Shown piece after piece: positions 3,001 to 62,934 of a stretch of 64,000 bases of DNA. The translations under genes and the position numbers were made by a program. The DNA comes from Prorocentrum cordatum. Lineage: Eukaryota. A model generated the notes under the pieces. The model was given only the letters and a program-made list of their open reading frames with translations, did no database searches and was not told the DNA's origin. Positions within the stretch are counted from its first letter, which is position 1, and each line of letters starts with the position of its first letter. The stretch is taken from contig CAUYUJ010000159.1 of NCBI GenBank assembly GCA_963575745.1, positions 1-64,000 on the forward strand, in the 5' to 3' direction.

Positions 3001-3106
3001 GGTATTTTTCTTCTCGGGCCTCAGCGCGGCCAACGTATGTCGCGAGGAGGCCGGTATTCGGCTTCTCTTCGCAAGCGAGCGCCGCCGGCGCGCCCGCCTG
3101 CCCCCG
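1..3106 (-). CDS. pol continuation (not in ORF track, open to window edge): degenerate DNMT-like domain, C5 DNA methyltransferase-like domain (~1050-1670), two CxxC-H-C fingers (~710-883), integrase N-terminus (1-265)
   Basis: Manual translation, in frame after the TGA at 3107. DNMT: MLEVCGGKGGIS / LQPSC / REQP / DQC..G....RKPT / CPGNHVH / AAQY. Integrase: LHLRWFH...CREC...FNEEVECDLFFY...FHIIDRC. Confidence 0.85.
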
Positions 3107-12232: not shown

Positions 12233-12580
12233 GTATCCCACAGCACATCCCATTATTACCCACAGAATGCCGAAGATTGTTATCTTGATCCAATGCATGT
12301 GCATTTCGGCTTCGGTGATTGGTTTGGGCTGTGGTTTGTCAGGCTCTGGCGTGGTAGCCGTGAGGCGCCTGACCGGCACGGGATGCAGGTGGCCCCGCTG
12401 CGAGTAGCCCCGCAGGGTGACCACGTTCTCGATCGAGTTGCCGATTGGCATCTGGTGGAAGTCGGGAGTGAAGTAGCGCAGTGCCGTAGGAGAGAGCGTC
12501 TCGAGTTCGCGGGTTGCCCCGCTAGCTCGATCGCGGACTGGCTCCGCTCCTCGCAGAGCCGACGCAACATGGTATTCCAC

Positions 12581-12598
12581 CGTGGTAGTAGTCCACCA
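12581..12598 (-). promoter_or_regulatory. Putative primer-binding site (TGGTGGAC..., compatible with a tRNA ending ...UCCACCA such as tRNA-Ala)
   Basis: TGG-starting motif 3 nt after the putative LTR-terminal CA. Confidence 0.4.
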
Positions 12599-12601
12599 AG
12601 T

Positions 12602-12912
12602 TGTGCCGTGGATTACAGGAATCAGAGCGAGAGCCAGCCACACGAGAGTGTAGCCAGCTCCGCTACCAAGTCGAAAACAAGCTGGTAAGCTTAGGTATGT
12701 GTTACGCATTAGGCGTTGCCATATCCCAGGCTTTGGCTCATAGCGCATGAGCAAGAGAGCGAGACGAAGCATGGGATCTGGAGTAAAGAGTAGGATGGGC
12801 ATCGTCAATGGAAAAGGATGTTTTCCGATCTCGGATGCAAGTAGTGCGCCTCAGTGAGGCACAGTCACATATCTGGCCGGGCCCGGCTTGAGCCAGGCAC
12901 GGCAGCGGTACA
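12602..12912 (-). repeat. Putative 5' LTR of element A
   Basis: On the minus strand it begins TGTACCG and ends CGGCACA (6/7 inverted termini), followed after 3 nt by TGG. The second LTR is not in the window, so this is unconfirmed. Confidence 0.5.
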
Positions 12913-16800: not shown

Positions 16801-17372
16801 TCCTCCCTCCCTTCCGCCCCTCCCTCCTGACTCTCCTTCCTCCTCGATCCCTCCCTCCTCCTCCTCTCCTCCTCCTCCTCCTCCTTCCTCCTCCTCCTCC
16901 TCCTCCTCCTCCTCCCCATCATCATCGACCTCCTCCTCCTCCTCCTCCTCCTTCTCATGTTCCTCCTGTTCCTCCGCCACCGCTCTCTCGACCTCCTCCT
17001 CATCCTCCTCATCCTCTTCATGCCCCTCCTCCTCCTCCACCTCCGCCTCCTTTTCCTCCTCCCTCACGTCCTCCCCCTCATCATTATCAGCAACAGCAGT
17101 ATCGTCAGCACCAGCAGCATCAGCATCAGTCTGATCGCCATCGCATTTTTTGTTCATCGCCATCATCAGCATCGCCATCACCATCGTCACCCCCATCACA
17201 ATCATCACCCAGCTCATCACCAGAATCATGACCATCCGCGTCATCAGCATAAGCATCATCAACACACCCGATGCTCCTCGGACTCATCATCATTCTCACC
17301 ACCAGAAACATCAGCATCGTGACCATCACCATCATCACCAGCAGCATCCACAACAACAACATCATCATCATC

Positions 17373-17404
<32 letters not shown>

Positions 17405-18075
17405 CATCGCCACCATTACCACCACGCACAACAGCAAAAACAGCAGTAACACCACAGCCAGCATCAACACCACTGCGAAAACCACCATCATCATCAACGC
17501 CACCATCACCACCACCGTCATCCTCACCATCATCACCATCAACATCACCACCATCATCATAATCATCAACCGGAACATCACCACCACCGCCGTCATCAGC
17601 AGTATCATCACCATCAACAGCAGCATCAGCCTCATCACCAACATGAGCATCATCATCATCACCATCATCATCATTGACGTGAACATCCTCAACATCAACA
17701 ACATCAGCATCATGAAAATCGTTACTAACAGTTTCCTCCGCATCGTCCCCCTCTTCCTCCTCAGTATCATGTTCCTCCTCTTCATCCCCCTCCTCCATCC
17801 CCGACCCCTCCTCCTCCTCATCATCATCATCACCAGCACCACCATCATCATGATTCCTCCTCCTCCCCGTCGTTATCATCATCAGCACCACCTTCAGCAA
17901 CATCATCGTTATATCACCAACAGCATCGTCAGCGGCACCAGCAGCAAGCAACAATATCCTCCTCGTCCTCCTTCTTCCCATCCTCTTTACCTTCTCCATC
18001 ACGTTTATTATCCTTGTTTCCCTCCTCCTCCTCATCGTCCTTGTCCTCCTCCTGATCACGTCCTCCTCCTCAGTT
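13900..18075. repeat. Degenerate (CCT)n / (TAT/CGT)n / (CAT)n microsatellite mosaic, with TAGGGCTA and CCCGGGCA short repeats at ~14170-14410
   Basis: Directly visible low-complexity triplet runs. Confidence 0.9.
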
Positions 18076-28650: not shown

Positions 28651-29289
28651 GACGGCCTGTGGGCGCGCCGCCGTGCGCGGCCGCATCCTGCTGGAGATGG
28701 CCTGGCACCCACGGCGCGGCCGTCCGGCGGGCCTGGCGCCATGCTGGACAGCGGAGCAGCGCGGCCGCCCACCAGATAGGGTGGCCGCAACCTGTCAAAG
28801 AAAGCGCGGTCCGCGCCTGTGGGGCGCCGCAAGGTAGACCGGGGACAGCTCTGTCCCTGATGTCTGATCTCCTGGGAAACCTCCTGGATGTAGAAAATCT
28901 GGGAGGCTAAGGATATCATGTGTAATACTCCTCTGCGAGGCCGGGAATTCGCCAACTTGAACCAAGTTGGGTACGGAAGACTGATATGGGACATCTTGGT
29001 TGGGTTTGCCGTCTCGCTGGGGGTCACGGAGCTACCAAGACGGCCGAAAAAGGCGACCAAAGCCACCAAGAGTCTCAAAGCCCAAGAGGGCGCAAGAGAG
29101 CCCCAAGACGGCCCAAGAGAGCCCCAAGGGGCCTTTAAGACTGCCCTACATGAGCCCTGCACAACCCTCATACATGACCTCCATGAGGACTTCAACAAAA
29201 GAACATACGGAACATGCAACATGAAAAAGCCTTCCTCTTCCACCTCCCCCTCCTCCTTCTCCTCCTCGCATTCGTCGACAACTTGGACT

Positions 29290-31014
<1,725 letters not shown>

Positions 31015-31269
31015 TGAGGAGCGGCATGGGCGCACAGGCGGCGGAGTGCGGGCCGGCGACGACGGCCCCGGTGGCGACGGCTGCTTGCCCCGCGCTGCCG
31101 CATGGCTCAAGAGGAGAAAGGCCCCCCTCCTCCCTCTCCTCAGAGGCGCGGGGGAGGCGCGGGGGGCCTACCCGGGGTCCGAGGGCCCGCGAGGGCCCAT
31201 AGGGCCCGAGGGCGGCACCTGGAGGCCGCTCTCGAGGCCCTGAGGGGCCGAGGCTCCAGGTGAGCCTCA
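31015..31269 (+). repeat. 5' LTR of element B
   Basis: Identical by eye to 43229-43483, with TGAGG/CCTCA inverted termini. Confidence 0.95.
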
Positions 31270-31271
31270 CG

Positions 31272-31289
31272 TGGGGGCTGCTCCGGGAA
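31272..31289 (+). promoter_or_regulatory. Primer-binding site, tRNA-Pro type
   Basis: TGGGGGCTGCTCCGGGAA, 2 nt after the LTR, closely resembles the MLV tRNA-Pro PBS TGGGGGCTCGTCCGGGAT. Confidence 0.8.
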
Positions 31290-31320
31290 ATCGTTTCCCG
31301 AGCGGGCCCGGGCCCGGGCG

Positions 31321-34300
31321 ATGGCGTCGCCCCAGCGCGCGCCTCGCGCGGAGCTGGGCGACGCCGACGCGGGCGACGTCGAGGCGGGCGCGGAGGCTGG
31401 CGCGCCGTCGGCGCAGGCGGCCGCGGCCCCAGCAGCGGCGGCGGCCGGCGCTGGCGTGGAGGTCGCCGGCTTCGAGGGCTCGCTGCTGGAGGCGATCGCC
31501 GACGGTGCCGTGGCGCAGCCGCCGCTGCTGGCCTTCGGCGCCTGGGTGCAGTGGCGCGCCGGCCCAGGTCGCCGGCTTCGCACTGCGCCCGCGATCGCGG
31601 CCAGCGAGAGCGCGTTGTGGCGGAGCACCATGGAGGCGCTGCACGGCCAGGACTGGCAGGCGCGGCTGCGCCAGCAGGGCCCCGCCGCGGCGCGCAGCCC
31701 CGCGACGCCAGCGGCTGCGCAGCCGCCGGCGGCCGACGACGTCCTGCGGCTGCTGGACTCGCCGGCGCGCGCGTCCGACGCGGGCTCCGACGCCACTGGA
31801 GCCCTGTCGGACGGCAGCTGGGGGCCGCTCACGGACGACGAGGTCCTGGAGCGGCTGCTCAAGGACGTGGAGCCGCACGAGTCGATGCGCGACTTCGAGC
31901 GGCGCCTGCTGCGCGCGCGGGCTGTGCTGACGCTGCGGCGGCAGGCGGTGCCGGAGGGCGCGGTCGAGTTCGGCATGAGGGAGGCCCGCTTCCTGGTGGA
32001 GGCGCGGGCCCACGGCGAGGGCGTGGCGGCCGCGCTGGAGGCGAAGCTGCACGCCGTCCTGGACGTCGAGACGGACGACGCCGACGAGGACGTGCGGGCG
32101 CTGATGGACCTCCTCGCGGTGGTGCGCGGCGGCGGCAGCGCTCGCGACGCCGTGGCCGGCGGGGCGCCGGCGCGGCCCCCGCAGGACCGAGCCCCGCCCG
32201 CCGGGCCCGCCGGCGTCGGCGTGGCGCCCGCGGGGCCACCCGCCTTCCCCGCCTTCGGCGAGGACCTGCCGCCGGGGCTTCCCCCGCGGGGCGGGCCGAC
32301 CGAGGCGGGCCCGGCGGGGCCCAGCTTGGCGGCAGCGCTGCAGGGCCTCGCGGGGGCGCTCGGCCAGCGGGCCGACAAGAAGTCGTCCACGATCCAGGTG
32401 AAGCCGCACTACAGTCTGCCGACGCTCGGCGACGGCGACTTCGACGTGGACTCGTTCGTGGAGGAGTTCGAGGAGATGGTCGGGCTGGCCAACGACGGTG
32501 CGGGGATGTCGGCGACGGAGATGGTGCGTGTGCTGGGGACCTGCCTGAAAGGCTCGCGTCAGCGGGCTTACAAGGTCGAGCTGCAGCAGGCTCGCCGGTC
32601 AGGCAGGCTGTCGGCGGATCCCGACGAGGTGTACCAGAGCCTGAAGGAGCGGCTGATGGAGTTCAAGGAGGGCTTGCTGGAGAAGCAGCAGCGGCTCAAC
32701 GCCGAGTGGAGGACGCTCTCCCGCGGCAAGATGAGCGCGCTGGAGTTTCAGGCGACGTTCGAGAACATCGTGGCGGAGATGGGGCTGGCTGGGATGGGCA
32801 AGTCCGATCGCGACCTGCTGCTCAGCTACCTGGCGCTCATCCCTCCCTCGCACCGTGCAGAGGTGCTCAAGGATCGCCGAGTGTATCAGCGCTCTGGCGC
32901 CCAGCCCGAGGTCCGCGGCGTCGAGACCTGGAGGGAGGCCCATCGCGTGCTGCTGAAGCTGGAGGAGGCCGAGAGCTCGGCCAAGGCGCTCGTCGCGGCT
33001 GTGGGCTCGGACTTCGCGCCCAGCCCGGGCGGCGGCGGTGGCCGGCGTCGGCGCGGTGGCGGTGGCGGCGATCAGGAGCCGCCCGAGGTCGGCGCTGTTG
33101 GCGGCTCCGGCGGCGCCGGCGCTGAGGGTGCTGTGAAGGTCTGCTTCCAGATGAGGGACAGCGGCACGTGTGCGCGTGGCGACGCCTGCAGGTTCTCGCA
33201 CGACCGGGCTGCCATCGCCGAGTCCCGGAGGACCAAGAAGGACGCTACCGGGCCGAAGGGCAAGGGCGCGGACGGCAAGAAGGGCAAGGGCTCGGACGAC
33301 GGCGGCAAGGGCGGCCTCAAGTCGCAGCTCTGCCTGCAGTTCCTCCGGGGTGCGTGCAGCAAGAGCGAGAAGGACTGCAAGTTCAGCCACTCGGGTAAGG
33401 CAGCTCAGAAGGTCATTGCAGCGGTTTACGCTGGCGCGGCCGCAGCTAAGGCGCCGCCGCCAAGCCTCGGCAGCGCGGGCTCCCCCGGCAGCGGCCAGGG
33501 AGCAGCGCCTGCGGCCGAGGAGGCGGCGCGGCCCGCAGCCTCTGGCGCGGCGCCGAAGGTGCAAGCTGCGGCGGGGGGCAAGCTCGAATGGGTGCGACCC
33601 TGTGGCGGCGTCTTCGGCCCGAGCTACGACCTCCCGCAGGTGAGCGTCGTCAGGGGCTCGCCCTCGCCCGAAGGAGCTCTGAAGGACCTGGACCAGATCC
33701 CCGCCAGCGCCTGGACGCAGGTGCAGGAGCCCGACGACGGGTACCACTACTTGTGCCACACGCATGTCTACGGCCTCAGCATCAGGACGCTCCTTGATGG
33801 CGGGGCGGTGTTCTCCCTGACGTGGGAGGCGACGATCGTCAGCATCATCAACAGCGCGATCGCGGAGGGCAAGTCTCCTGAGGACCCCGACTGGCCGATC
33901 GCGGGCCTGATGCACTGGGGCCGGGACTCGAAGGCCTCGTCGGTGGCGGACAAGGGCGACCTGAAGATTCGTGGCATGGTGGACCTGCGCCTGGCCTTCG
34001 AGGGGCTGGATGGTACGCGAGTGGTGCGTGTGTTTCGCCTTCGGCTTCTGCGCGGGGGTTGGGACAGGCCGTTTCTTATCATTCTTGGGGCCCCAGCGCT
34101 CGATGCACCCCCTCTGGGGATCGGGCACCGGCCTACGCTACAGGGCCACTACTTGCCGGGGCTGGGCATCACGGTCAAGCGTGCGGAGGCCGACGCGGTG
34201 CAAGCGAAGCTGTTGACCATCTCGGCGGTGTTCTCAGAGTGCGATGCCGATAAGCGTCGAGGTGAGGATCGTCGGGCTGCCAGTGCGGTAGGATCCCTGG

Positions 34301-36470
34301 TGTGGTCCGGCGCGGCCTGCCCGAGCTACCCCATCTGCATGGTCGGCGGCCAGTGCCCCGCGGAGTTCGGCGGCGGCGACACAGGCGTGATCGTGCTCGA
34401 CGACTCGGAGTCCGCCGTCCCCATCTACCTGAGCGGCGTGGAGGGCGTGCGGCTGGAGCTCGGCGACTGCGCTCTGGTGCCAGCCCGCGCTAGCGGCCTC
34501 GCAGCGGGTATCGTCGGCGACGTGGTGGCGAATGGCGCGGCGGCCGTCTGGGCCGCCCCCGGCCCTTGGCTCGGCCGGGAGCAGCTCGTCCTGGTCGGCA
34601 ACTGGGACCAGCCCGGCGTCAGCATCGAGGTCGGCGACATCGTGGGCGCCGTGATCCAGACCGACGGCGAGCCGGCCGGCGACGACCCGTCAGTGGCGCA
34701 CGTGTGGCAGGATTGGGACGAGCTGCGGGACATCGTTGAGCTGGAGGTGCCGACGGACGAGTACTACGCCGAGCGTCTAGTCTACTGGCAGCGGAAGTAC
34801 CCGAAGGCGGCCACCACCCTCCTCGAGCATCTCTTGGCGGTCGAGGGCCTGCTGGACGTGTGCATCGCGGCCGGGTACTCCATGGGTGCCGAGAAGTCCC
34901 TCGACAGGCTGGCTCAGCCCTCCGTCGAGGCGCTCGGCGAGATCGTGGGCCGCGAAGGCAGCGAGGCGTGCGAGCGGCATCTGGAGCTTATCAAGAACTG
35001 GTCGGTGCTCGAGGACGTGGCAGCGCTGCGGCGGTTCCTCGGCACGTTCAACTGGATCCGCGGCCACTTCCCCAAGGAGGTGCAGAAGCCGCTGGGGATC
35101 CTCACGCAGCAGCTCAAGAAGGACGCCGAGTGGCCGATGACCTCCGAGAAGGTTGCGGCCCAGCGCGCCATCCAGCAGCTCGCGTGCGAGGCCATCCGCC
35201 TCGCGGTGATCGACATGGTCGGGGCGATCTCGAAGGACCGCCCGCTCGAGCAGGTCGCGGATTTTTGCCCCTACGGTTGGGGTGGCAGCGTGTATCAGCT
35301 GGCCGCCGACCGCCGCACGCTCAACGTGCTGGCGATGTACGGCGGCTGCCTCAGCTTGGCGCAGAGCAATTGGCACCCCCGCCGGGGTGAGCTGTATGCG
35401 CAGCGCGAGACCAGGCGGGAGGCACGTAAGGATTTCGGTCGGCTGCCCGCCCTGTGCTGGACGGACCACGCGGCAGCGGTGAAGGGCGCTACGGGCGAGG
35501 CCGAGACGGACTCCACCGTCATCCGCTGGGTTGGCGAGATCGAGAGCGACGGCAGCAGGCTGATGAATCTCTCGGGGCGGAGCGCGGCCCTTGGTGATGG
35601 CCCCTCCCGAGAGAACGAGGCCCACGGCAAGTTCCTGCGCGAGCAGGCTAACTCCCTGGCGAACATCACGATCGAGGACATCATCGGCGATGACTACCGT
35701 CCGGGGGAGGGGGTCCCGTGGGGCCTTGACGAGACCCCCCTCGCGGCCGCCTTGCAGCTGGTGGCCGTGGCCGGGGCGGAGCGCGAGAAGGGCGACTCCA
35801 TCGCGCTGCACCTGCCGGACTACGGATGCGAGAGGCGGCGGAGCGCAGAGCAGGCGCGGGCAGCTCGACAGCTGCAGCTGGCGGCGCCAGGCCTGCGGCT
35901 TCGCATGATCCCGCACGACCCTCCGCTGGCAGACGGTGCCGGCGGCCTGTACTACATCGCGCCTCCTCGCTTCCCAGGTGATGCGAGTGGTAAGGCGCGG
36001 AAGCAGCTTCGCAATGACGTGCTGACCGCAGTGGCCGCCGTCTTGCGAGAGTGTGCCGCGCGGTGGCCCAAGGTCGTGATCGGGACGGGCCACGGCGGGC
36101 TGGTGGCGGCTGCAGCGGCCCACCCCAGAGTGGTGGAGGCCGCTCTCGCGCTGCGGTACGCGAGAGAGGCGGAGGGCATGCAGGTCGCGGAGGCGTGGGT
36201 GAACGTCAGGGCGTTCGTGGCGATCGGGCCGCGCGCCCACAGCCCGAGCAGGATCGGCTTTGTGCGAGAGGCGTTTCCGGAGTTCGGAGCGACTGCCCAC
36301 GGCGACGAGCGCCCGGCCCCCCTCTATTTGGTGGAGGGCGCCGGGGCGCACCGCCGTTTCGGGCAGGACCTCGGCGAGGCGCTGGGCGTGAAGGTGTCGG
36401 CCACGCTGGGCGAGGTCCTCATGCAGGAGGTGGTCTCTGCCCCCCCGCGGCTGCTGGAGTTCAGCGGCGG
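31321..36470 (+). CDS. Element B ORF1 (frame stays open to 37623): Gag with two CCCH fingers, aspartic protease, RT C-terminal half (thumb/connection), RNase H, alpha/beta-hydrolase-like domain
   Basis: CFQMRDSGTCARGDACRFSH and CLQFLRGACSKSEKDCKFSH; LLDGGA...IILGAP; LEHL...VEALGEIV...IKNW...LRRFLGTFNWIR; VADFCPYGWGG...AQSNW...GELYA...WTDH...IRW; VVIGTGHGG. Confidence 0.9.
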
Positions 36471-39400
36471 CGCTGCGCGTGCGGGCGGAGTTCGCTGGTG
36501 CTGGCGCGGTGCGGCCAGTGCATCAGGGCCGACCGCGAGCTCGAGGAGGAGGCGCGGCTGGCTGAGGCGCCGGAGGAGGCGTTCGGGGAGCCCGACGCGG
36601 TCGACGTGGCGGCCTCGGCGGCGCGCATGCGCGCGGTCCGCCCGCAGCCGGCAGTTGCCGTCGGGCCTGGCCCCTGCATCGCCGTGTCGGCGGAGCTCGT
36701 GCGGGACCTCCTGGAGTTTGGCGGCGGCCGAGCGGATTTCACGTGCAACTGCATCCGGGTCCGCCGAGCGCCGGCCGCGGGCGTCGTGGCCTTGGAGGCC
36801 GCGCGGGGTTTCTCCTATCGGTTGTCGTGCTTCGTCGTGCCACAGGGGCCCGAGCCGGGCGTGGAGGTGGCGCTGGCGCAGCCGTGCGTGGAGTTCGGGC
36901 TGGAGCTCGTCACGGAGATCGACGTGGAGCTGCTGCAGGCGGGCTTGCCGAAGGGCGCCGAGCTGGTCCAGCTCTTCGCCTGCGCCTGGCTGCTGTGGGA
37001 GGGCGGTGCGCGCCTCCCCGCGCTGGGCGCTACTCACGTGCATCGGCACTGCAGGGGGTCGGCCGTCAGCAACGGTGCGATCATCAAGGTGTCCTCCTAC
37101 TCCTCCGCCTACTCCGAGGTCTTCGCGGGCGCCCTGGGGCTATCATGGTACCGGGCCCTCCGCGATCGCTTCGGCGGGCGGGCATCAGGAGCCTTCGTCG
37201 AGTTCGCGGACTCCGACTTCGCGCGCGGCGAGCGGGAGGCCTTCGAGGTGCCGGACGTCCTCGGGGCGATCACCAACATGCGGGCGCCGGCGTCTGAGCA
37301 GGCATGCTCCGTCGGGCGCGTGGCATGCGCCCCGGAGCGCGGCACTGCAGCCTTCGACGCGGAGGTGGCGGACGGGCGCAAGCTGGAGGACGCCGACATC
37401 GCCATCAGGGAGGAGTACGCCGCGAAGGTGCGGGGCTGTGAGCCTGAGGCGGGGAGCGAGCCGTTCGAGCTGTCCAAGTCGCTTCGTGCCCACATCATCG
37501 GGGACCAGTGGAAGGACGAGGAGCTCGGGGCCGTCTGCATGCAGCTCCGCGCCGAGTCTGGCGCCGGCGACACCCCCGAGGCGCAGCGTCTCGGGGAAGA
37601 CTTCGCGCTCGAGCAGTTCGTGACGGTGGGCCCAGGGGAGCAGCGCTGGCTGCTTGTCCTCCCTGCGTCTGGCGGCCCGGGCTCGGGTATATCGTGGAGG
37701 CGCTTCATCTTCCTCCACGTTCACGCTGGTCCGTCTGGGGGTCACAAGACGGTGGTCGCCACTCGTGAGTGCGCCCGGCGGCTGGTGGTTTGGCCGGGGC
37801 TCGCGGCGGACATCGAGAAGTGGTGCGCTAGCTGCTGGGCCTGCCTCCGATTCAGGAAGCAGACTACGAAGGTGCAGGCCAGCTTCATCGTGGCACGGCA
37901 CCGGCTTCCTTTTCATCATGTGGTCATCGACGTGGAGGGCCGCATCACTCCCCCCGACGTCGACGGGTACGCGTATGTGCTGACCTACATCTGCGTGACG
38001 ACGGGGGCCCCCCTTCTTGAGCCGCTCAAGCACCTGCAGCACTCCGAGGTCCGGCGCGCCTTCTTTCGATGCGCGACTCGGGCCAAGACCTGGCCGATGC
38101 TGGTTAGTTCGGATCGTGGCAAGGAGTTCTGCAACGCTCTCATGGAGGAGCTCTGGGCGCTCCTCAACTTCGCAGGCCGCTTCGGCACGTCGTGGAGGCC
38201 CTGCGAGCAGGCGGACGCGGAGCGGTCCCACATCGAGTGTGCGAGGGAGATCGGCATCTTCCTGCACGACGTTTTCAAGTGTGCCCCCGGCCAGTGGGCC
38301 GAGCTCCTGCCGATCGTCGAGTTCGCGTTGTGGAACTCGCCCGGCAAATCGGCGCTGTCGCCGAGGGACCTCTGCATGGGGTGGTCGTTGGCTTCGCCGC
38401 TGGAGAGGGAGCTGCTGCCGCTGGAGCCCGCCGTTCGTGAGGCAGTCTCCGACGTCGCGGCAGCGCAGTTCGAGCAGTTCAGGCGTTTGCGGGAGGTTTA
38501 TCTTCAGCATCGGGCTCGAGCCGGCCGACGCAGAGCGGAGCTGGCTAATCGCACGAGATCGTCGAGGCGCCCGGAGGTCGGGGACATGGTATTGTTCAAG
38601 GACCCGAAGCTCTCCAAGGCCGTGGCCGGGCACGCCCCAGGCCGCCGGCCCCTACGCGGCCCCTTCGAGGTCCTCTCCACGAAGGGCAACGTGGCCACGT
38701 TGCGGGACCCCGAGACCCAGCAGGTGCTCAAGGACATCCACGGGGATTTCTTGGTCGGCGTCCCGGGCTTGGTGGACGACACGGAGCGCATCGTGAAGCT
38801 GGAGGAGGACGACGGCCGTGGCAGGGCCTCTGCCGGACAGCTTCTGGCAGCGCGGCTGGCCCCTGGAGGCGGCGAGGCCGCCGAGGCGCTGGCGCCGCGC
38901 GTGAAGGCGCGGATGCGAGAGGTGAAGGTCGGGCGGCTCGTCGCCTACCAGGGCGAGGAGGCGAAGCGCTGCCGGGTGGGCAAGGTGCTGAGCCTGGCTC
39001 AGGACCTGAGCAGCGTGACGGTGCACGTGTACCAGGCGGCGGTCGACGGACGGCTGCAGGTGGTCTGGACAGCGGCGTACGACCGCCAGGAGGGCGCGGA
39101 CTTCCAGCGGCAGAGAGTCGAGACGCTGGAGGCGAAGCGGGTGCTGGGTGTCGTGGAGCTCAACAAGGGCGTTCTGAACCACTCGGCGGCGAGCAGGCTG
39201 GCGCGGGCCGGCTGGCGGCTGGACGAGGGGACCGTACGGCACGGTGCCTTGGCGGCGGCGGCAGTGGCGCCGGCCGCGCCACGGCTCTCCGACCTCCCCT
39301 CGAGCCGCGTCATCGCGCTCGTCGCAGCTTGCCGTCCGCTCGAGGAGCTCGACCTGAAGATCGGCGAGGTCCAGGCGTGGGCGCACGGCGTTCCCCTCTT

Positions 39401-42400
39401 CGTGGAGATCTTCGATGGGGTCGGGAGGCTCTCGCAGGCGGTCCAGAGCTTAGGCGCTGCCAACGCGGTGTGCAGCGTGGTGGCCGGCGTCGACCTCAAG
39501 CGCAGGACGTACGGACAGTACTGGGACCTCAGCAGGGCTAAGGACCGTGCCCGGCTTCGCTACCTGCTCTTCGAGGTGCTGAGGCCGGCAGGAGCCCACT
39601 GGGCGCTCCCCTGTGCGAAGTGGAGCAGCCTCGGTGGCCACCAGCCCGACGCCAACGCGCACGCGCTGGCCTCCTTCACCATGGACGGCCTCGAGCACCT
39701 CGACGGCGCGGGCTGCCTGGCCTCCTTCGAAGGCCCTCGAGCGCACGCGCTGGTGGCAAGCGCGGAGTGGCAGCAGCGGTTCGGGTCAGCCGAAGCGCCG
39801 CGCGGGCGCTGGCGATACGTGCTCCCCGACGGCTGCATGTTCCACTGCAGGAGCCCGGACGAGGAGCCCCTGGCCATGCAGAAGCCGTACGTCATCGGGG
39901 GCAACTTCCCGCTGGACTTGCTGGACGTCCAGTGCCGCCGTGGAGCGCTGCGGCCGCTAGGGCGCGGCCTCGAAGGCGTCGAGGTCGCCTCCGCGGAGCT
40001 GGGCGGCGACGCCGGGAGCTCCATGATCGGAGCCGCGCGGGCGCCGGAGGGGCCTCGCATGCCCTGCGAGCCGGGGCGCGCGGCCGCTCCGGCTGCTGGG
40101 GTGACGAGGTCGGTGGACAAGCTGAGCGACGCTGAGATGGCGGAGAAGAAGGCGCGGCGGGAGCCGGCAGCGGCGGCGGCGAAGAAGAAGTGGGCCGAGC
40201 TGGCCAAGAAGGGTGACTGGGACCAGGTGCGGATGCCCGGCAAGTGCTTCAGGTTTGCCGAGGTGAAGGTTTCGCCGAGGCGCTCGGCAGAGTACAAGGC
40301 TAAGGTTCTGGAGGCGGTCGGGCTCGTCGGCGAGTGCGCGGGCTACAAGCACCTGGGCAGCCAGGAGCTGGAGGCGCTGAAGGAGATGATCAGCCTGAAG
40401 GCCGAGGCGTTCTGGGTGAAGGGCACCGCGCGGACGGTCATGCGCGGCTTCAAGCACGACGTGGTGACGACCGGCTTGCCTGTGCGTGGGCCGCCGATCC
40501 GCCTTAAGGGCCCGGAGGCTTCCATCGTCCGCGAGGAGCTCGAAGCGGGCGTGGAGCAAGGGCTGTACTCCAGGGGGACCTCGCCCTGGGGCAGCTGGGC
40601 CTTTCCGACCAAGGAGCACGCGAGCGGCCGGAGGCGTCGGACCGTCGTGGACTACCGCATGGTCAACCGCAGGATGGTGATGTTCGTGTACTACATCCGC
40701 CGGTGCCGAGACGTCAAGGGCGAGCTGGTGGGCTGCGCCTTCATCTCTGGCATGGACGGCGCTCGCGGCTTCAATCTCCTGGTCAACACTGAGCACGCGA
40801 AGGAGGTCCTGGCTGTGCTGGCGGACTGCGGCTGCTACCTCCCCGAGGTGCTGCAGCTGGGGCCAGCGACGGGGCCCTTCGACTTCCAGTTCTGCACCGA
40901 CGAGCTGTTCACTGGCACCGGCCGCGGACGCTACGGATCGGTTTGGAAGAACTACATCGACGACTTCTGGGTCAGGACGGGGCAGTGGCTGAACGGTCGC
41001 GCCTACACCGACCGAGAGTACGAGGAAATGCTGGCGGCGGCATCCCCCCCCCCGGCTGCCTCTCGCCCGCTGGGCGACTCGCTGGCAGCAGCCGGGTTCG
41101 CGGGGACCCGCAAGGCCAGCCAGAGCTACGACCACGCCAAGGGCGTGCTCGTGGGGCTGTGCGTGGCGCAGTCGGCCACGGGAGCGGCGGCTATGGAGGG
41201 CGGCGGCGTTGCCTTGGCGAACGGCCTCCGCATGCTGGTGGTGGCTGCCGCGGTGCGCACGGCGTCCTTGGTGGATGAAGGGCTGCGCGCGGGCGTGCAG
41301 CTGACTCAGGACATCTTCGAGGCGGCTGGCGACCTGGTCCAGAGCGTCTCCTGGAACCTCAGCGGGCTCATCCACGAGGTGTGCGAGGGGGCGGTCCTGG
41401 TGGTGCGCGTCCTGGTCGTCGTGCAGTGCTGCTACGCTCTCTACTGCCTGCGCTCGTGGGTGGCTTGCCGTTCGCAGCGGGCGGCGCTGGAGCGGGCTGC
41501 CACCGCCGGCGAGGCGGCTCAGCGCGGACTCACGTCCAGCGCGCGAGCCTGCGAGGCCGGCGACGGGCCCGCCTTCGGCCGCGAGCCGATGGCCAGAGCG
41601 GCAGCCGCTGGGAGGAGCCCGAGCGGGGCCCTCTCAGCAGCAGATGGCGCCGCCAGCCCTGTGGTGGCGCTGTGGCGCGAGGCGGAGTTCGAGACGCCCC
41701 TGCTCGGAGCGGCGGCACGCCCCCGAGCGGAGGTCCTCCAGATCCAGCGGAGCGCGGCGGTGGCGCTGCGGGACCTGGAGCACTCGGACCGCCAGCGCGC
41801 CGCGCGCGCGCGCGACCTGACCGCTTGCGGTGCGGTGGTGTCCGCAAAGCTGGTGGAGGCTGCGCGCAGCTCAGCAGTGAAGGACGCGGGCGACCTGTGC
41901 GAGTTCGAGGTTGAGGTGGCCGGCAGCCGCGGCGTGCGGTACGATGTGCGGCTTCGCGCTGGACGCTTGGCCGCAGCGTTGCTCCCCGCATCGTGCACCT
42001 GTGCGGACTTCTTCGGCGGCGTCGGCAGCCCCTGCAAGCACATCGGGGCGGCCTGGTGCTGCGCGGTGGACGGCAACTTCAGCGAGCTGGTGGAGCTGGC
42101 GCTCGCGGCTGGCCGCAAGGAGGGAGCTGCCGCTGGACCTCAGCGACGCGCAGCCCTGGCGCCGAGCGACTCCCTTGGCCTCGCGGGGGCCGTGCGGGAG
42201 CTCCGCGACTCGGAGGCCGAGGTCGTGCGCCTGCGCGAGGAGGTCCAGCAGCTGAAGGCGCAGCTGGGGGCGACCTCCAGGCGCGGAGCCGTGACCGAGT
42301 TCCTCTCGGCGTCGGAGACGCTGGCGGCTTGGGCGCGGGCTTGCGGTGAGGCCGAGAGCTATGTGCATGTGGCGTGCTTCACCTTCGACCAGCCGGGCGT

Positions 42401-42770
42401 GGTGAACTACCTGGAGGCGGCTCGAGCTCGAGGCCTCACAGTCCGTTTGGTGTTCAGCGGCCGTGACAAGGCCCTGACCAACAACCAGGGGCCGCGCCTG
42501 CAGCGGCTCCGAGCCTGTGGGTGCGAGGTGCGCGCTCACAAGGGATCGCGGCTGCACGCCAAGGTGATGATGACAGAGCGCGAGATTGTGCTGGGCAGCT
42601 GCAACTTCACGACTGCCAGCTTGGGCAACGTGGAGCGCGGGGCCAGCCTGCAGGAGCTGTCCGAGGAGACGGTGCTCGAGCAGAAGGAGTGGTTCGAGCA
42701 GCTGTTCGAGGCGGCGTCGCCCTTCAAGGACGGGATCGGCGAGGTGGTGCCTCCGTCGCCGGCCCGGTGA
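36440..42770 (+). CDS. Element B ORF2 (-1 frame; ORF track 36051..42770): integrase, C5 DNMT-like domain, RT fingers/palm (YIDD), hydrophobic segments, SWIM finger, PLD-family nuclease
   Basis: Integrase: H..GGH...WPGL...CWAC, VVIDV...SDRGKEF...AERSH, GPF. DNMT: VEIFDGVG...LPC...FEGP. RT: SPWGS...RTVVDYRMVN...MDGARGF...LQLGP...YIDD. SWIM: CTC...CKH. PLD: LHAKVMMTE...GSCNFT...NVE. Confidence 0.9.
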
Positions 42771-42778
42771 GGGCGCCG

Positions 42779-43037
42779 CGAGGCGCTGGAGGCCGGCTGG
42801 GCGCGAGGCCTGGCGGCCGTGGCGCTGAGGCGCGAGGCGCTGGAGGCCGGCTGGGCGCGAGGCCTAGCGGCCGTGGCGCCGAGGCGCGAGGCGCTGAAGG
42901 CCGGCTGGGCGCGAGGCCTAGCGGCCGTGGCGCCGAGGTGCGAGGCGCTGGAGGCCCGCCGGGCGAGAGGCCTAGCGGCCGCGGCGCGAGGTGCTGGAGG
43001 CCATCTGGGCGAGAGGCCCAGCGGCCGTGGCGCCGAG
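42779..43037 (+). repeat. 54-bp tandem repeat (about 5 units) in 3' UTR of element B
   Basis: CGAGGCGCTGGAGGCCGGCTGGGCGCGAGGCCTAGCGGCCGTGGCGCCGAGGCG units start at 42779, 42833 and onward. Confidence 0.85.
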
Positions 43038-43213
43038 ATGGCAGGAGCGCGGCATTTTGCTGCGCCGTCGACGCCCGGCAGCGCCGGGAGCTATGAGCGA
43101 CTGCATGGCGCCGAGTTCGGCGACTTCGAGGAATTCATCGACTTCAATTTTGTGGAGCGGCACGTCGCGGAGGACGTGCCGGGGCGCCTGTGCCGCGGAG
43201 TGGTGCCCTGCTC

Positions 43214-43224
43214 GAGGAGAGGGG
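43214..43224 (+). promoter_or_regulatory. Polypurine tract
   Basis: GAGGAGAGGGG, 4 nt upstream of the 3' LTR. Confidence 0.75.
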
Positions 43225-43228
43225 CACG

Positions 43229-43483
43229 TGAGGAGCGGCATGGGCGCACAGGCGGCGGAGTGCGGGCCGGCGACGACGGCCCCGGTGGCGACGGCTGCTT
43301 GCCCCGCGCTGCCGCATGGCTCAAGAGGAGAAAGGCCCCCCTCCTCCCTCTCCTCAGAGGCGCGGGGGAGGCGCGGGGGGCCTACCCGGGGTCCGAGGGC
43401 CCGCGAGGGCCCATAGGGCCCGAGGGCGGCACCTGGAGGCCGCTCTCGAGGCCCTGAGGGGCCGAGGCTCCAGGTGAGCCTCA
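43229..43483 (+). repeat. 3' LTR of element B
   Basis: Identical by eye to 31015-31269. Confidence 0.95.
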
Positions 43484-45075
<1,592 letters not shown>

Positions 45076-45258
45076 GGGTTACCCTTAGTCTCCTTTACCA
45101 TTCTTGAATGAATTGTAGAGCGTACGGGTTCGGGTTCGGGTTCGGGAAGGCGCCCGCGATACAAAAAAACACAAGCATATGCGACATCTACTACGTACAT
45201 GTAATAAAGATCCCACTGGGCAGTGGAACTTCTCTGGAATCGGCGGAACAAACACTTG

Positions 45259-58607: not shown

Positions 58608-61600
58608 TTAGAAGGGGAAGGACAAGGAGGGAGGAAGAGAAGAGAAGGCAGGCCACAATTCGTGCACACGCAAGAGGCTGAGGGACGAGGCGATAGCCTT
58701 GGCTAGCACGAGGCACAGCTTCTCGGGGTAAACCTGCTTCTGGCGTGTCAAGAATCCCCCTTGTCCCGTGGGCCCGTCCAACTGATAATGTGGTTTCCCC
58801 GAAAAGCTGCAAACGCCACGGCCCTTACATTTTGCACCTTCCAGAGCCGAACACTTAACGTTGAACAGGTTGAGACGAGTACGAGCTCTCCAAGGCGTGC
58901 CGAAAGCGCAATAATCAACAATATATGTCGTGCACTCGGGACGTCTCATCATGGCCGGCCGACGGTGGCCAAGCCACAAGTAGCTCTGGGAGGGGTTCTC
59001 CTCCCCACACGGCAGGCCTCGCTGGATGCGCGCTTCTAGCAGCACGCCCGACCGATGAGCCAGCACGTTACCTTCGGCAACTGTCCGCTGATCACGCACA
59101 TCCAGATTTGGGAGACCTGCGGGGTATTCAGGACTGCGCAGCCTATGAGGGAGTCGTGACCACTGTGGCGCCCGTCGGGCCATCGCGAACGATTGGCATG
59201 GGGTACCTGACCACATTCCCACGACCAGCCCTGATCGAATCCATCCAAGAAGGGTGTTGAACGCATTATCATTCAGCAGGTCGCGGGACGGCCCGTGGCA
59301 GATATCGATGCAAACGACGGCGATATTCCGGTCCGCCAAAGCAGCCGCCAGCCCTCCTGCCCCCGAGAACAGGTCTAGAAAGATCCTCGGGCCGAGGGGC
59401 TGCGGCTGTGCAAGAGCTTGGCGTAGCGCTCGACGAAGGGCGTGAGGCCGCGGCCCACCAGCGCCGCGATCTGACCCCTCACCGTCGCGGGGAGCTTGCC
59501 GAGCTGCAAGGACACCCGCGCGTGCTTGTCGTAGCGAGCGACGCTCCGAAAGCTGCGCCAGTGCCCCCTCTGCTGCACCTCGAGGAGCGATCGCGCTCGA
59601 ACGAGACGATCGTGGCTGGCGCCCCCGCGCCGCAGCGCGTAGAGGCTCGGCTCGACGCAAAAGACCTGCACCTGCTGCACGGCCAGCGCGAAGGACCGGT
59701 ACAACTGCCTCGAGCTGACGTCGAAGAGGCGCTCCCCGCGGGCGCGCCCCGCCTTCAGCGCCTGCAGCAGCGGGATGAGCGGGCGGTGGCGGTCCAAGTC
59801 GAGGAGCACGCTCAGGTCGAACTCCTGGGTCTTGGACGGCCGTCCCAGCTCTTCCACGCGAACGCAGAAGCCCCAGAACGCGCCCTGGCCGCGCGACGTC
59901 GTGGGCGGCACCAGCTGTCCCACAGTCAGGCTGAGGAGCTCCGAGGGGCGCATGTAGGTCTCGAACATGACGATGATGACCAGGGCGCCCACCGGGCACT
60001 CGGGCAGCATCGCCCACGCCAAGGCCAGCACGACGCCCCAGGGCAGTGGCGGGCGGCTGTGCCCCGGGTCCAGCTGGCGCCAGCCCAGCATGGCCGCATG
60101 CGCGTTGGGGAAGACCTGGCGCAGCGGGCCGCCCAACGTAGGCTGGGCCCGCACCACGGCGGCCAGCAGCCGAGAGGCCAGCGCCCGCGACCACCCCTCG
60201 CCCCGCGCCCACTCCACGAAGTTGAGGAGCTGGAGGTCCCACTGCGGGCCCGACCAAGCGGGCAGCGGCCACCGATTCAGGTAGCCAGCCAGCTGCTCCA
60301 GCACGTCGCAGTAGCCCGCCTGCGTCGCCGGGCGGATCCGCTCCTGCTGGAGACCGGTCAGCAGCGGGGCCAGCAGCAGCAGCCGCGCCCGCGTCGCCGC
60401 CCGGAGGCGCTCCAGGCGGCCCGAGCCCTGGCGGCCCCCAGGGCCAGAGGGGGTTGAGCGGGCAACCCGCCGTGCGCCACCAGGACGGATGGGCAGGCAA
60501 GCCCCAGGGGCGCTCGGCCCAGCGCGCCCGCTGCTCGCGAGGCCGCGGCCCGTCAGCGCGCCGACAGAACGGCTGCTGGAGCAGCCCGGGCCCGCGTCGT
60601 CCACGTCGTCGGAGTCGGACGGGACCGCGCGCAGCAACTGCGCTGGAGGCAGGCAAACGATGCTGGACATGGACTGCCACTTTCGCTTGGCCCCCATGCC
60701 GAGGCTGGTGAACTCGGCTCGCAGCGTCCAGGGTGTTGAGCTCCGAGGGGACCCATCGGTCGTGAAGCTTGAGCCCGACGGCGAGAGCAATGGCAGACGA
60801 GAGCCGGCACTGAAAGTTCATGGCCGGAGTCGACGACCTGCCCTTCGCGCGAGCACAAATCACCGACATGTTATCGCCCAGAAGCAGCACACGGGTGTTA
60901 TGAAGGCTACAATCTCGAGCAACATGTCGCACCGTCCAGGTCCTGGCCCGGGCCTCGAGATGGACCTGGGACCCCGGGGCACCCCTCCAGCGGCCCGCGT
61001 AGGCCACAGCCCAGCTCCGCTCGACCAGGGCCGCCGGGACCTCAGCGAACGAGCGGGCCCGCCCGAGCCCCAGGATGTTGGCCTCCGAAGCCTCCGAGAT
61101 CTCCAGCTCCTCCTGGTGATCCAGAGCCCGGGACCGCGGCGCCTCTGAGCTACTGAGAAGACCACGAAAGCGTGCTCGCTCACGAACACGGCCCACAGCG
61201 GCGACCTCACTAGTCTCCCAGCGCGTCGATCCAACTCCAAATCCCCAGCATGACGCGTCGTGGCCGAAGACTCGACTCGACCACGGGCGACGCATCGAGG
61301 CACGAGCCAAGGGCAGAAGAGCACGTATCCACCGAACTTCGCGCTGAACAGAATGCCAGAGGGGCTGACGGCGAGTGTAACTCTCGTGGATGAACACATA
61401 GACCTTTTCCACGAGGCACAAGATCTCCGGGGAAAGCGAAAACAGAGCCGTGACGTGGCCCACGAAACGCTCCAGCTCCTGCCCTGTGAAAGCAGGTCGA
61501 ACCTCTAGAAGATAGTCGGCAGCCAGTTTCAACATCCAGAAACGATTAGCTTTAGGACGCCGCTCCCCAGACGAGCCCACCAAAGTGAAACCTATGAAGT

Positions 61601-62934
61601 CATTGCCCCCCGCCTCTGAGGTCTCCAAGGTCGACGCGACCCCAAGGCCCGCGAGCTGAGACTGCATACTCTCGACGTCCGAGGTGGCAACCGACTTATA
61701 CTGGGCAATGGAAACGAAGTTGTCGATATAAAGTCCGCGAAGCGACCCAGCGTCGCCAAGAGGCGGGAGCGGGGCCTTATCTAGGAGCCACGGGGCCTCG
61801 GGGGAAACATTATTGCGCTGATACTGGTTGGCGGCCTGTACAAGAGCCACGGCCCAATTCCAACCCATCGGCACCACACGAGCCCGCGCGCGGGCCCAGC
61901 CCCGATTACGAGCCGCATCCGGGAGCGCGGCGGCGAGGTCCGGGGACAGGTGCGCAATAGGAAGGGAGGGCAGGCCGAAAAAACACCTGTACTGTTCAGG
62001 AAGTGTGAACTGGCAATAGCAGACTTCGACATCGCCCCCGTGCAGCACGGGGATCACATGAGGCTCGCATTCGAGATGAGCGAGAGCCTCACCAGAGGGC
62101 AAAACCACACCAGGAGGCTCGCGGAACCGAAGGTTAGGCACACGAGTGTCCCAGATCAGGCGAAGAGCACCTGACTTCTTTCGAACGAAAAACAAGCCAC
62201 TTTCTTCGAGTACATCATCGCTGACTTCCACAACGCCAGCGGCCCAGAGCTCAGAAACGAACTCTCCAAAAAGTTTGGGGTTATCCCGAAGAACGGGATC
62301 AAGGGAAGAGGCTGCCATCAAAGCTGTCGCGGCGAGCGGCGGCCTCCTCCTCAGAAAGTAGGATTGACCGATCTTCAAGCGCAGACTGCAGGGCGGGCGG
62401 CAGACACTCACTCAGCGCAACTCGCCCAGAGAGCCCCGCGGGAAGCGACACGTTCCCTTGCTCGAAGTTCGCCCGATCACCGACGGCCATCGCGTCATCC
62501 GCGTAGCCGGGCCGCGTGCCCTGGAGCGCCTCCCACGCCCCCAGGGCGCCCCCGCAGTCAGGCGGGGGAGCGACGACTGATCCGCACTGCCGAGCAAGGT
62601 GTCGAACGGCCGAGACCTGAGCAGAAGTCAAGGACGAAGGCGAGGCCGCCAGCGGCTCCGGGGCGCCCAGCTCGTTCAAGGCGCGGATGCCCTCGAACAG
62701 CCAGCCCTCCTGAGCACGTCGACGTCGAAGCCGCCGCCGCTGGCTCTGGGACAGGCCCAGCCCGCTGGCACCCCCAGCGCAGATCTCCGAGGCGGCCGCC
62801 AGGGAGATCGGCAGAACGTCGCGCTGCCTCATCTGCTGCGAAGCTGAAAGCGCCTCAGGGCGGCACCACCTGCCAGCCCTGAACCCCTCACGAAAGCCCT
62901 CGAGGAGGCGGGGCAGTCCCCCCCGTGGCGGCAC
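58608..62934 (-). CDS. DIRS pol: N-terminal region, frameshift ~62305, then RT (YIDN), RNase H, and C-terminal C5 DNMT (~58650-59390)
   Basis: RT: FFVRKKSGALRLIWD, VPMGWNWA, LYIDNF. RNase H: HDASCWG...LEA...GDNMSV...WVPSELN. DNMT: FLDLFSGAGG...GTPCQSF...EENP...DYCAFGTPWR. Confidence 0.85.
59375..60790 (-). CDS. Tyrosine recombinase
   Basis: FETYMRPSELL (R), SKT (K), LYALRRGGASH (Y-x-x-R in place of HxxR), RGHW...VARY (catalytic Tyr). Confidence 0.9.
   Translation of the reverse strand: MLSPSGSSFTTDGSPRSSTPWTLRAEFTSLGMGAKRKWQSMSSIVCLPPAQLLRAVPSDSDDVDDAGPGCSSSRSVGALTGRGLASSGRAGPSAPGACLPIRPGGARRVARSTPSGPGGRQGSGRLERLRAATRARLLLLAPLLTGLQQERIRPATQAGYCDVLEQLAGYLNRWPLPAWSGPQWDLQLLNFVEWARGEGWSRALASRLLAAVVRAQPTLGGPLRQVFPNAHAAMLGWRQLDPGHSRPPLPWGVVLALAWAMLPECPVGALVIIVMFETYMRPSELLSLTVGQLVPPTTSRGQGAFWGFCVRVEELGRPSKTQEFDLSVLLDLDRHRPLIPLLQALKAGRARGERLFDVSSRQLYRSFALAVQQVQVFCVEPSLYALRRGGASHDRLVRARSLLEVQQRGHWRSFRSVARYDKHARVSLQLGKLPATVRGQIAALVGRGLTPFVERYAKLLHSRSPSARGSF

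Follow-up and report, generated by a model that had tools for sequence, protein, structure and literature searches.

A single-HKD phospholipase D domain with a SWIM finger and a putative membrane anchor at the end of pol in a dinoflagellate LTR retrotransposon

Retrotransposons pick up extra enzymes (for example, chromodomains, dUTPase, exonuclease, and DNA methyltransferases), and such accessory additions reveal how an element deals with its host. The element described here is a complete long terminal repeat (LTR) retrotransposon of 12,469 bp that spans positions 31015 to 43483 on the plus strand of a 64,000-nucleotide stretch of DNA (contig CAUYUJ010000159.1, positions 1 to 64,000; hereafter the window, to which all coordinates refer). 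Its host is a bloom-forming dinoflagellate with a huge genome, unusual chromatin, and poorly understood transposon biology. The coding region ends in a module (41100 to 42770) in which a hydrophobic region is followed by a SWIM zinc finger, then by a long helix, and finally by a phospholipase D (PLD) domain with one HKD motif, and this module is a true component, maintained by selection, of a dinoflagellate Ty3/gypsy-like LTR retrotransposon family.

The closest described systems are small PLD enzymes. Nuc of the Salmonella plasmid pKM101 (structure 1byr) and NucT of Helicobacter pylori (6ehi) are secreted or periplasmic and, like the module, have a single HKD motif in each chain, within a domain roughly 150 residues long. 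They are bacterial and stand alone, whereas the module forms the C terminus of a eukaryotic retrotransposon protein, in which an anchor, a SWIM finger, and a long helix precede the PLD domain. Zucchini (also MitoPLD or PLD6; 4ggj and 4gel) likewise has one HKD motif; it is a dimer with an N-terminal membrane anchor and a cytosol-facing catalytic domain that cuts single-stranded RNA, and it is the nuclease that makes the small RNAs that silence transposons. Unlike the module, Zucchini belongs to the host, as a gene of the piRNA pathway of animals, and is not part of a transposon, it lacks a SWIM finger or coiled-coil helix, and its fold similarity to the module (template modelling [TM] score, 0.70) is below that of Nuc. 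Poxviruses also carry PLD folds, in the F13-type palmitylated envelope protein, which is membrane bound via cysteines, and in the K4-type nicking-joining enzyme, but these proteins have two PLD lobes per chain, belong to a DNA virus, and lack a SWIM finger.

By its LTRs, integrase, and reverse transcriptase (RT) motifs, the element is classed from its sequence as Ty3/gypsy-like. With such elements (Metaviridae) it shares LTRs, gag-like zinc fingers, RNase H, an integrase with H2C2 and DDE parts, and RT motifs of the Ty3, caulimovirus, and foamy virus kind; it differs from them in a split RT, CCCH instead of CCHC fingers, a length of 12.5 kb, and a pol that ends in the anchor-SWIM-PLD module. 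De Mendoza et al. (2018; PMC5890265) describe SymbioLINE-Dnmt and SymbioDIRS-Dnmt3, dinoflagellate retroelements with a cytosine methyltransferase in the pol region and shuffled domain orders. They resemble the present element in having taken up an extra nucleic-acid enzyme and differ in being long interspersed nuclear element (LINE) and DIRS elements, whereas the present element has LTRs and a DDE integrase. A term search of that paper returned none of the words PLD, phospholipase, and SWIM, and by term search passages of a dinoflagellate genomics review (PMC11453091) and an accessory-domain review (PMC6338049) did not mention a PLD/HKD domain in a retrotransposon. A search of the full-text literature, which did not extend to subscription journals or Repbase, found no description of such a domain in a retrotransposon, a result that is provisional. 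An LTR retrotransposon with an extra enzyme is a known kind of element; the addition of a PLD-type nuclease together with a zinc finger and an anchor is, again provisionally, apparently undescribed.

The anchor-SWIM-PLD module at the end of pol

The module is the in-frame C-terminal end of pol, in the order anchor, SWIM finger, helix, and PLD domain, and lies within the second open frame of the element (36018 to 42770; 2250 residues). An earlier note, made from the letters of the window, had reported hydrophobic helices, a SWIM finger, a coiled coil, and a PLD-type nuclease here; the observation of the module is confirmed, and its interpretation in that note is partly supported. Pfam PLDc_2 (PF13091), whose cut-off is 27 bits, gave the PLD domain (42345 to 42704, plus strand; catalytic motif at 42555 to 42605) 48.7 bits when the whole frame was scanned and 51.4 bits when the module was scanned by itself. 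The frame holds one PLDc_2 stretch and one HKD motif, in agreement with the single domain that had been proposed. The motif is intact and reads H-x-K-x4-E-x5-G-S-x-N; its acidic residue is E instead of D, and G-S follows after five residues where the standard motif has six. Among 37 aligned sequences, the catalytic residues were kept in 33 to 37 (H in 36, K in 35, D or E in 36, G in 37, S in 36, and N in 33), and the acidic position was D in 26 and E in 10.

An AlphaFold2 model of the SWIM-helix-PLD part, built from the 37-sequence alignment, had a mean predicted local distance difference test (pLDDT) value of 83.6, with block values of 94 to 98 over the PLD part and a disordered linker between the SWIM finger and the helix. 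When this model was compared with solved structures using Foldseek, Nuc (1byr) came first (expectation value [E] of 2e-11; TM score to target, 0.88; root mean square deviation, 1.9 Å), which recovers the PLD fold expected in the earlier note. NucT (6ehi; TM score, 0.80) and mouse Zucchini (4ggj; 0.70) were next, followed by FAM83, PLD3/PLD4, SauUSI, and classical phospholipases D. Sequence identity to Nuc and NucT was 16 to 18%.

In a single-sequence search of solved structures, mouse Zucchini was matched at E values of 1e-6 and 2e-6, Nuc at 0.012, and NucT at 0.06. The family profile matched Nuc at 7e-21, Zucchini at 8e-15 and 4e-14, the poxvirus virion nicking-joining enzyme at 4e-14, and NucT at 9e-11, with a phospholipase in sixth place at 2.5e-10 and the PLD3/PLD4 exonucleases after it; the five best distinct profile matches are enzymes known to act on nucleic acid. 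To our knowledge, all characterized small single-HKD enzymes are nucleases or disputed nuclease/lipases. Profile, motif, and predicted fold together place the domain in the PLD superfamily, and by architecture it belongs with the small single-HKD enzymes of the Nuc/NucT/Zucchini branch. The likeness to Nuc and Zucchini drawn in the earlier note holds for the single-HKD kind; the closest fold and profile are those of Nuc, and Zucchini is closest only by single sequence. The label of Zucchini orthologue is not favoured, since the family profile scores Nuc above Zucchini (78 versus 58 bits). A search of the ESM Atlas gave no usable match.

The SWIM zinc finger (41940 to 42053, plus strand) has its ligands at C41994, C42000, C42033, and H42039, in a C-x-C-x10-C-x-H pattern that spans 41994 to 42041. 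Depending on the piece scanned, Pfam SWIM (PF04434) scored 17.5, 19.5, or 20.1 bits, values that straddle the cut-off of 19.6, and seven of the nine relatives that reach this region exceeded the cut-off with 23.1 to 33.1 bits. The ligand pattern was found in 8 of the 11 alignment rows that cover the region; of the other three rows, two are without the domain and one reads S-x-C. In the model the finger forms three strands and a helix, and phage SWIM proteins align with it at 1.5 to 1.9 Å over 52 to 55 columns. The finger named in the earlier note thus has its ligands intact here, with a score at the cut-off in this copy and above it in most relatives.

Downstream of the finger, a 34-residue helix (42174 to 42275, plus strand; model residues 99 to 132) is proposed as a dimerizing coiled coil. 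AlphaFold2 predicts it as a single helix with block pLDDT values of 85 to 95, its segment is conserved in relatives, and three to four zipper-like heptads can be counted in it, as judged by eye and not by a coiled-coil program. Of the coiled coil claimed earlier, then, the helix is supported by the model and the heptads remain a visual reading.

Ahead of the finger lies a helical region rich in Ala, Gly, and Val (41103 to 41522, plus strand) for which AlphaFold2 predicts three helices (residues 22 to 53, 57 to 96, and 100 to 161 of a piece starting at 41040) and which varies in length among relatives. The model of this 280-residue piece had a mean pLDDT of 67.5 and showed three long helices, about 70 disordered residues, and a further helix before the SWIM finger. 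The only strongly hydrophobic segment is a transmembrane-like helix with a Cys-Cys pair (41376 to 41453, plus strand; Kyte-Doolittle value of 2.28 over 19 residues), which contains one Arg and one Gln. Of the hydrophobic stretches quoted in the earlier note, only one is transmembrane-like, and the first stays below 1.6. Nine of 12 family members examined have a segment of at least 1.6 over 19 residues ahead of the SWIM finger, 8 of these 9 at a distance of 130 to 200 residues. When anchor placement was compared with the Zucchini type, the helix proved to lie about 385 residues ahead of the HKD motif, with the SWIM finger and the long helix between.

Several short sequence patterns accompany the module. 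The stretch from 41103 to 41375 is built from Ala/Gly-rich units of the F-E-A-A-G type, and their number varies between relatives (P0029, P0019, and P0153; alignment A3). A GDGP motif (41559 to 41570, plus strand) sits in the disordered linker (local pLDDT of less than 50); 12 of 14 relatives scanned have it at the corresponding place, and it occurs once more in the first frame after RNase H (35593 to 35604). A longer form, L-S/T-x3-4-A-x1-3-G-D-G-P, recurs at domain borders: one copy follows RNase H, another follows the hydrophobic region, and some relatives have it before that region as well. Border motifs of this type are also present in P0016, P0017, P0033, P0153, P0158, and L003. As a guess, these may be protease cleavage sites that release a SWIM-PLD protein, or copies of the usual end of RNase H. 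At the other end, a conserved P-x-S/T-P-x-R tail (42750 to 42767), directly followed by the TGA stop codon (42768 to 42770, plus strand), ends many rows of alignment A1 and could be a docking or phosphorylation site.

Conservation and selection among relatives

Among 1.84 billion representative sequences, 313 matched the module at an E of ≤1e-3, 58 at ≤1e-10, and 11 at ≤1e-30, numbers because of which the module is not a chance resemblance. Most of the 313 matches are short fragments from unnamed assemblies, but between them no part of the module is left uncovered. Seven proteins of similar length matched at an E of ≤1e-5, and for five of the seven the precomputed Pfam list gives both PLDc_2 and SWIM. 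A 919-residue protein (P0153) matches the whole module at 60% identity and extends upstream into the RT half that precedes it. Six long proteins matched, five of them named Prorocentrum cordatum by NCBI. Four of the copies (P0159 to P0162) are 93 to 98% identical and lie on four different contigs; since these near-identical copies are named and spread in this way, the element family is multicopy and its host is very probably Prorocentrum cordatum. Another Prorocentrum cordatum relative (P0163) is 63% identical, and a protein labelled as from a bacterial metagenome bin (P0164; 50%) shares the eukaryote-type domain order and is cut short within the hydrophobic region. The precomputed Pfam list gives PLDc_2 in three of the six long matches and rve as well in two of those three.

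At the DNA level, 21 loci on metagenome contigs encode a relative. One of them (L001; 72% identical in the PLD part) has the same order of RT half, hydrophobic region, SWIM finger, helix, and PLD domain. In three others (L005, L006, and L007), an open reading frame (ORF) that ends in the module is followed 450 to 650 nt downstream by a gag-like ORF on the same strand; the L006 contig begins inside the SWIM finger, so that its anchor is out of view. The same module ORF is found in L003, whose contig ends 255 nt after the stop codon, before any gag. We infer that the module sits at the 3′ end in the L005, L006, and L007 families too, because the spacing of 450 to 650 nt fits assembly through a shared LTR into gag. 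In L007, a distant relative, gag is 38% identical to that of the present element (E of 1e-54) and the SWIM-PLD part is 30% identical over 340 residues. This locus (L007:1-4994) encodes an ORF of >1600 residues that ends in the module and also carries a Tpt1/KptA domain (95.7 bits), with a CCCH-finger gag ORF 450 nt downstream. Similar large proteins (P0075, 1664 residues; P0077, 923 residues) lack RT or integrase. Fingers of the RanBP2 kind (W-x-C-x2-C) seen by eye in L007, P0075, and P0077 received no Pfam call at an E of ≤0.01.

All 10 of the 10 relatives that reach the C terminus score above the cut-off with PLDc_2, and relatives at 30 to 70% identity keep the order anchor, SWIM finger, helix, and PLD domain at the 3′ end of related elements. 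The module is thus present and intact in related elements, as the earlier note required of a genuine part. The ratio of nonsynonymous to synonymous substitution rates (dN/dS), which that note had also asked for, was calculated by the Nei-Gojobori method between the window and L001, with the PLD part compared pairwise with L002 as well. Over the whole module (528 codons), dN/dS was 0.29 with a dS of 0.88. By part, the values against L001 were 0.24 for the PLD domain, 0.21 for the SWIM finger, 0.33 for the helix and linker, 0.28 for the hydrophobic part, and 0.09 for the neighbouring RT half, and the three pairwise PLD values (window, L001, and L002) were 0.22, 0.38, and 0.30; with a dS of about 0.88 to 1.3, near saturation, and three DNA sequences, all of these values are rough. 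They indicate that the module is under purifying selection, with all values well below 1, and is less constrained than the polymerase.

Possible roles of the module

The role to which we give slightly better than an even chance is that of a membrane-tethered, dimeric phosphodiesterase of the Nuc/Zucchini type that acts on nucleic acid as an accessory enzyme of the element. In such an enzyme, the long helix would pair two copies of the protein, each of which contributes a half-site to a shared HKD active centre. The hydrophobic helix would tether the dimer to a membrane, or within the particle, and leave the catalytic part facing the cytosol, as in Zucchini/MitoPLD, and the SWIM finger would bind the substrate or a partner. 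The enzyme would cut phosphodiester bonds of nucleic acid, be it single-stranded RNA or DNA, and the cut could serve to process the element's own RNA or complementary DNA (cDNA), to destroy nucleic acid of the host or of rivals, or to interfere with silencing. We infer dimerization because single-HKD enzymes need two chains for one active site, and with it membrane tethering, a nucleic-acid rather than a lipid substrate, and a role in replication or host interference. Nucleic acid is favoured over lipid because nucleases outrank phospholipases in both sequence and fold comparisons, because a SWIM finger is present, and because the module of a distant relative is fused to an RNA-end enzyme.

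The module is neither an integrase nor an RNase H, because the element has its own of each. Since it continues the pol frame without an intervening stop codon and matches no envelope family in Pfam, it is not an env gene either. Pfam, applied to the whole frame and to the module, recognized no envelope family or surface domain; no signal-peptide predictor was run. The env position assigned to the module in the earlier note holds in that the module lies at the 3′ end of the coding region; it is an in-frame C-terminal extension of pol and not a separate env-like gene.

A stand-in for env could nevertheless take the form of a lipid-directed PLD that hydrolyses or binds phospholipid, as has been claimed for MitoPLD with cardiolipin, or works like poxvirus F13, and remodels membranes for assembly, wrapping, exit, or entry. 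The position of the module at the 3′ end behind a hydrophobic helix with a Cys-Cys pair is in keeping with this, as are the variable-length Ala/Gly-rich helical region, which looks membrane active by eye, and the titles of the Zucchini entries, which name a cardiolipin hydrolase. In a library of viral structures, the best matches were poxvirus envelope proteins (E of 2e-7 to 2e-6), namely, the orf-virus major envelope protein and the crocodilepox “palmitylated EEV envelope lipase,” both predicted structures, and PLD proteins of giant viruses were matched as well. Their TM scores to target are 0.34 to 0.64, however, versus 0.88 for Nuc; nucleases take the first five places with the family profile and a phospholipase only the sixth; SWIM fingers are usually found with nucleic-acid enzymes; the module has no ORF of its own and no surface domain recognized by Pfam; and in L007 it is fused to an RNA 2′-phosphotransferase domain, which points to RNA. 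We consider a lipid-directed role unlikely. Still less probable is a second, sequence- or structure-directed DNA endonuclease of the BfiI/SauUSI type that would choose the insertion site or attack competing elements or modified DNA. The PLD fold is common to the restriction enzyme SauUSI, NCBIfam/PADLOC models gave matches to DrmC (31.6 bits), DpdK, NucT, and MkoB, and this copy is bordered at either end by (TAC)n microsatellite sequence. Those matches, the defence families DrmC, DpdK, and MkoB among them, are all far under their cut-offs, though, a single insertion tells nothing about site choice, the element already has a complete integrase, and a hydrophobic anchor is hard to square with work on chromosomal DNA.

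That the module is an inert passenger, a captured fragment of a host gene of no use to the element, is the reading we disfavour most and regard as very improbable. Retrotransposons do capture host sequence, the HKD motif is broken in P0163, and several database relatives (P0007 and P0157) are deletion derivatives; against this stand the dN/dS values of 0.2 to 0.4, the retention of catalytic residues in 33 to 37 of 37 members, and a four-part order that is kept at 30% identity in an element whose gag is only 38% identical. A bolder form of the nuclease proposal, which we rate as rather a long shot, is that anchor-SWIM-PLD is an ancestral third component in the env slot of an undescribed dinoflagellate LTR lineage with a split and permuted RT, its PLD domain being a Zucchini-like membrane-bound RNA endonuclease for processing of the element's own RNA or for sabotage of host RNA silencing. 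If it were true, Zucchini-type nucleases would have moved between transposons and host genome-defence pathways. Zucchini is the closest animal relative by sequence, and the presence of the same kind of enzyme on the transposon side raises the question of whether it serves RNA processing by the element or counter-defence.

Several observations weigh against a tethered nuclease as the product of this module. The frame change at about position 36470 may leave the module of this copy untranslated, and the HKD histidine is lost in P0163. The SWIM score sits at the Pfam cut-off in this copy, and the rough dN/dS values are those of three near-saturated sequences. An Arg and a Gln lie inside the transmembrane-like helix, which would have to enter a membrane from within a cytosolic polyprotein, and 3 of the 12 relatives fall under the hydropathy threshold. 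Mouse Zucchini is deposited as “mitochondrial cardiolipin hydrolase,” which, with the poxvirus palmitylated envelope proteins as the best viral structure matches, would suit a role at lipid or membrane.

Reading frame, split reverse transcriptase, and surroundings

The first coding frame runs from an ATG at 31321 to about 36470, and thereafter the −1 frame continues to 42770. Third-position GC of the coding frame is 0.8 to 0.98 throughout and 0.83 to 0.93 in the module, like the rest of the frame, so that the module shares both reading frame and codon bias with pol. The −1 change in this copy is placed at 36469 to 36471 (plus strand), and the third-position GC signal switches at about 36440 to 36470. 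Because two copies (P0160, 3845 residues; P0161, 3612 residues) read without interruption through this junction, the family encodes a single giant gag-pol protein. The likeliest cause of the frame change is an indel of 1 nt in a GGCGGCG run, or else an error of assembly, despite the identical LTRs. An in-frame C CCC CCG heptamer lies at 36441, about 25 nt upstream of the junction; a programmed −1 frameshift at this heptamer was considered and rejected, since P0160 and P0161 are unshifted about 25 nt downstream and a 1-nt indel is simpler.

The 5′ LTR (31015 to 31269) and the 3′ LTR (43229 to 43483), both on the plus strand, are 255 bp long with termini TGAGG...CCTCA and have 0 mismatches in 255, and the element is very young. 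The identical LTRs, a purine-rich tract, the integrase domains, and the CCCH fingers bear out the retrotransposon polyprotein named in the earlier note. TACT stands directly before the 5′ LTR and directly after the 3′ LTR, but the surrounding sequence is a (TAC)n microsatellite, which makes the duplication weak evidence by itself. The purine-rich tract GAGGAGAGGGG before the 3′ LTR (43214 to 43224, plus strand) was read from the sequence.

In the gag-like part, two CCCH zinc fingers (33136 to 33213 and 33340 to 33393, plus strand) exceed the cut-offs of Pfam zf-CCCH_DUS3L (32.6 bits) and zf-CCCH (25.1 bits), and zf-CCCH_12 (23.6 bits) is under its own. Farther along the first frame, the C-terminal half of RT (end of the palm, thumb, and connection; 34825 to 35178, plus strand) aligns to residues 316 to 431 of 8r0s_A (“Enzymatic polyprotein”; E of 0.003) and to residues 321 to 428 of the foamy-virus PR-RT 7ksf, and it is followed by a weak call of RNase H (35254 to 35538, plus strand; Pfam RT_RNaseH, 18.3 bits with a cut-off of 24.8). 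The second frame holds the H2C2 zinc domain of the integrase (37698 to 37859, plus strand; Pfam Integrase_H2C2, 44.6 bits with a cut-off of 25.5), its DDE core (37908 to 38207, plus strand; Pfam rve, 29.1 bits, just under the cut-off of 32.6), and the N-terminal half of RT with fingers and palm (40572 to 40964, plus strand). This last half ends in YIDD at 40953 to 40964, and its stretch from 40572 to 40913 aligns to residues 179 to 294 of 8r0s_A (E of 0.39).

The RT thus appears to be split and permuted, with the YIDD half located past the integrase, immediately ahead of the hydrophobic region and some 5.4 kb downstream of the half with thumb and RNase H; both calls rest on weak alignments to solved structures (E of 0.39 and 0.003) together with motifs recognized by eye, and Pfam RVT_1 gave no score on either frame or on 400-residue pieces. 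The element departs from the canonical order of protease, RT, RNase H, and integrase with a contiguous RT, and the split order is also found in P0160, P0161, and the 50%-identical P0164. A split RT, if functional, would be an unusual way of building such an enzyme. A short T-D-x-E/Y-Y-x-E-x-L-like stretch follows YIDD and occurs again before the thumb piece. Two other segments had a familiar look by eye, 38970 to 40067 as a methyltransferase and 33901 to 34800 as a dUTPase; neither found a match in Pfam, NCBIfam, or solved structures, and both names were dropped.

A tblastn search of the 64-kb window with the second frame returned only the self-match, with no other copy. A sequencing run (X1, of unspecified kind, in the form of contigs) contained related copies over all 30 bins of the element; it showed no joints and is uninformative on expression, splicing, or a subgenomic message. 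Minus-strand open frames at 2 to 3106, 9410 to 12850, and 58608 to 62411 (1035 to 1267 residues) match no Pfam family at an E of ≤0.001. Another minus-strand frame (4362 to 8336; 1324 residues) carries a Tpt1/KptA RNA 2′-phosphotransferase domain (59 bits) and a RING finger, and it has no similarity at an E of ≤1e-4 to the Tpt1 ORF of L007.

The element has a G+C content of about 70%, versus about 53% in the surrounding region. Its 3′ untranslated part contains seven copies of a tandem 54-nt repeat (42723 to 43087, plus strand; found by repeat search), the first of which overlaps the coding end. Long (TAC)n/(ACT)n microsatellites with a strong strand skew flank the element and recur in the window, at 14000 to 18000, 29200 to 31000, and 43480 to 45100.

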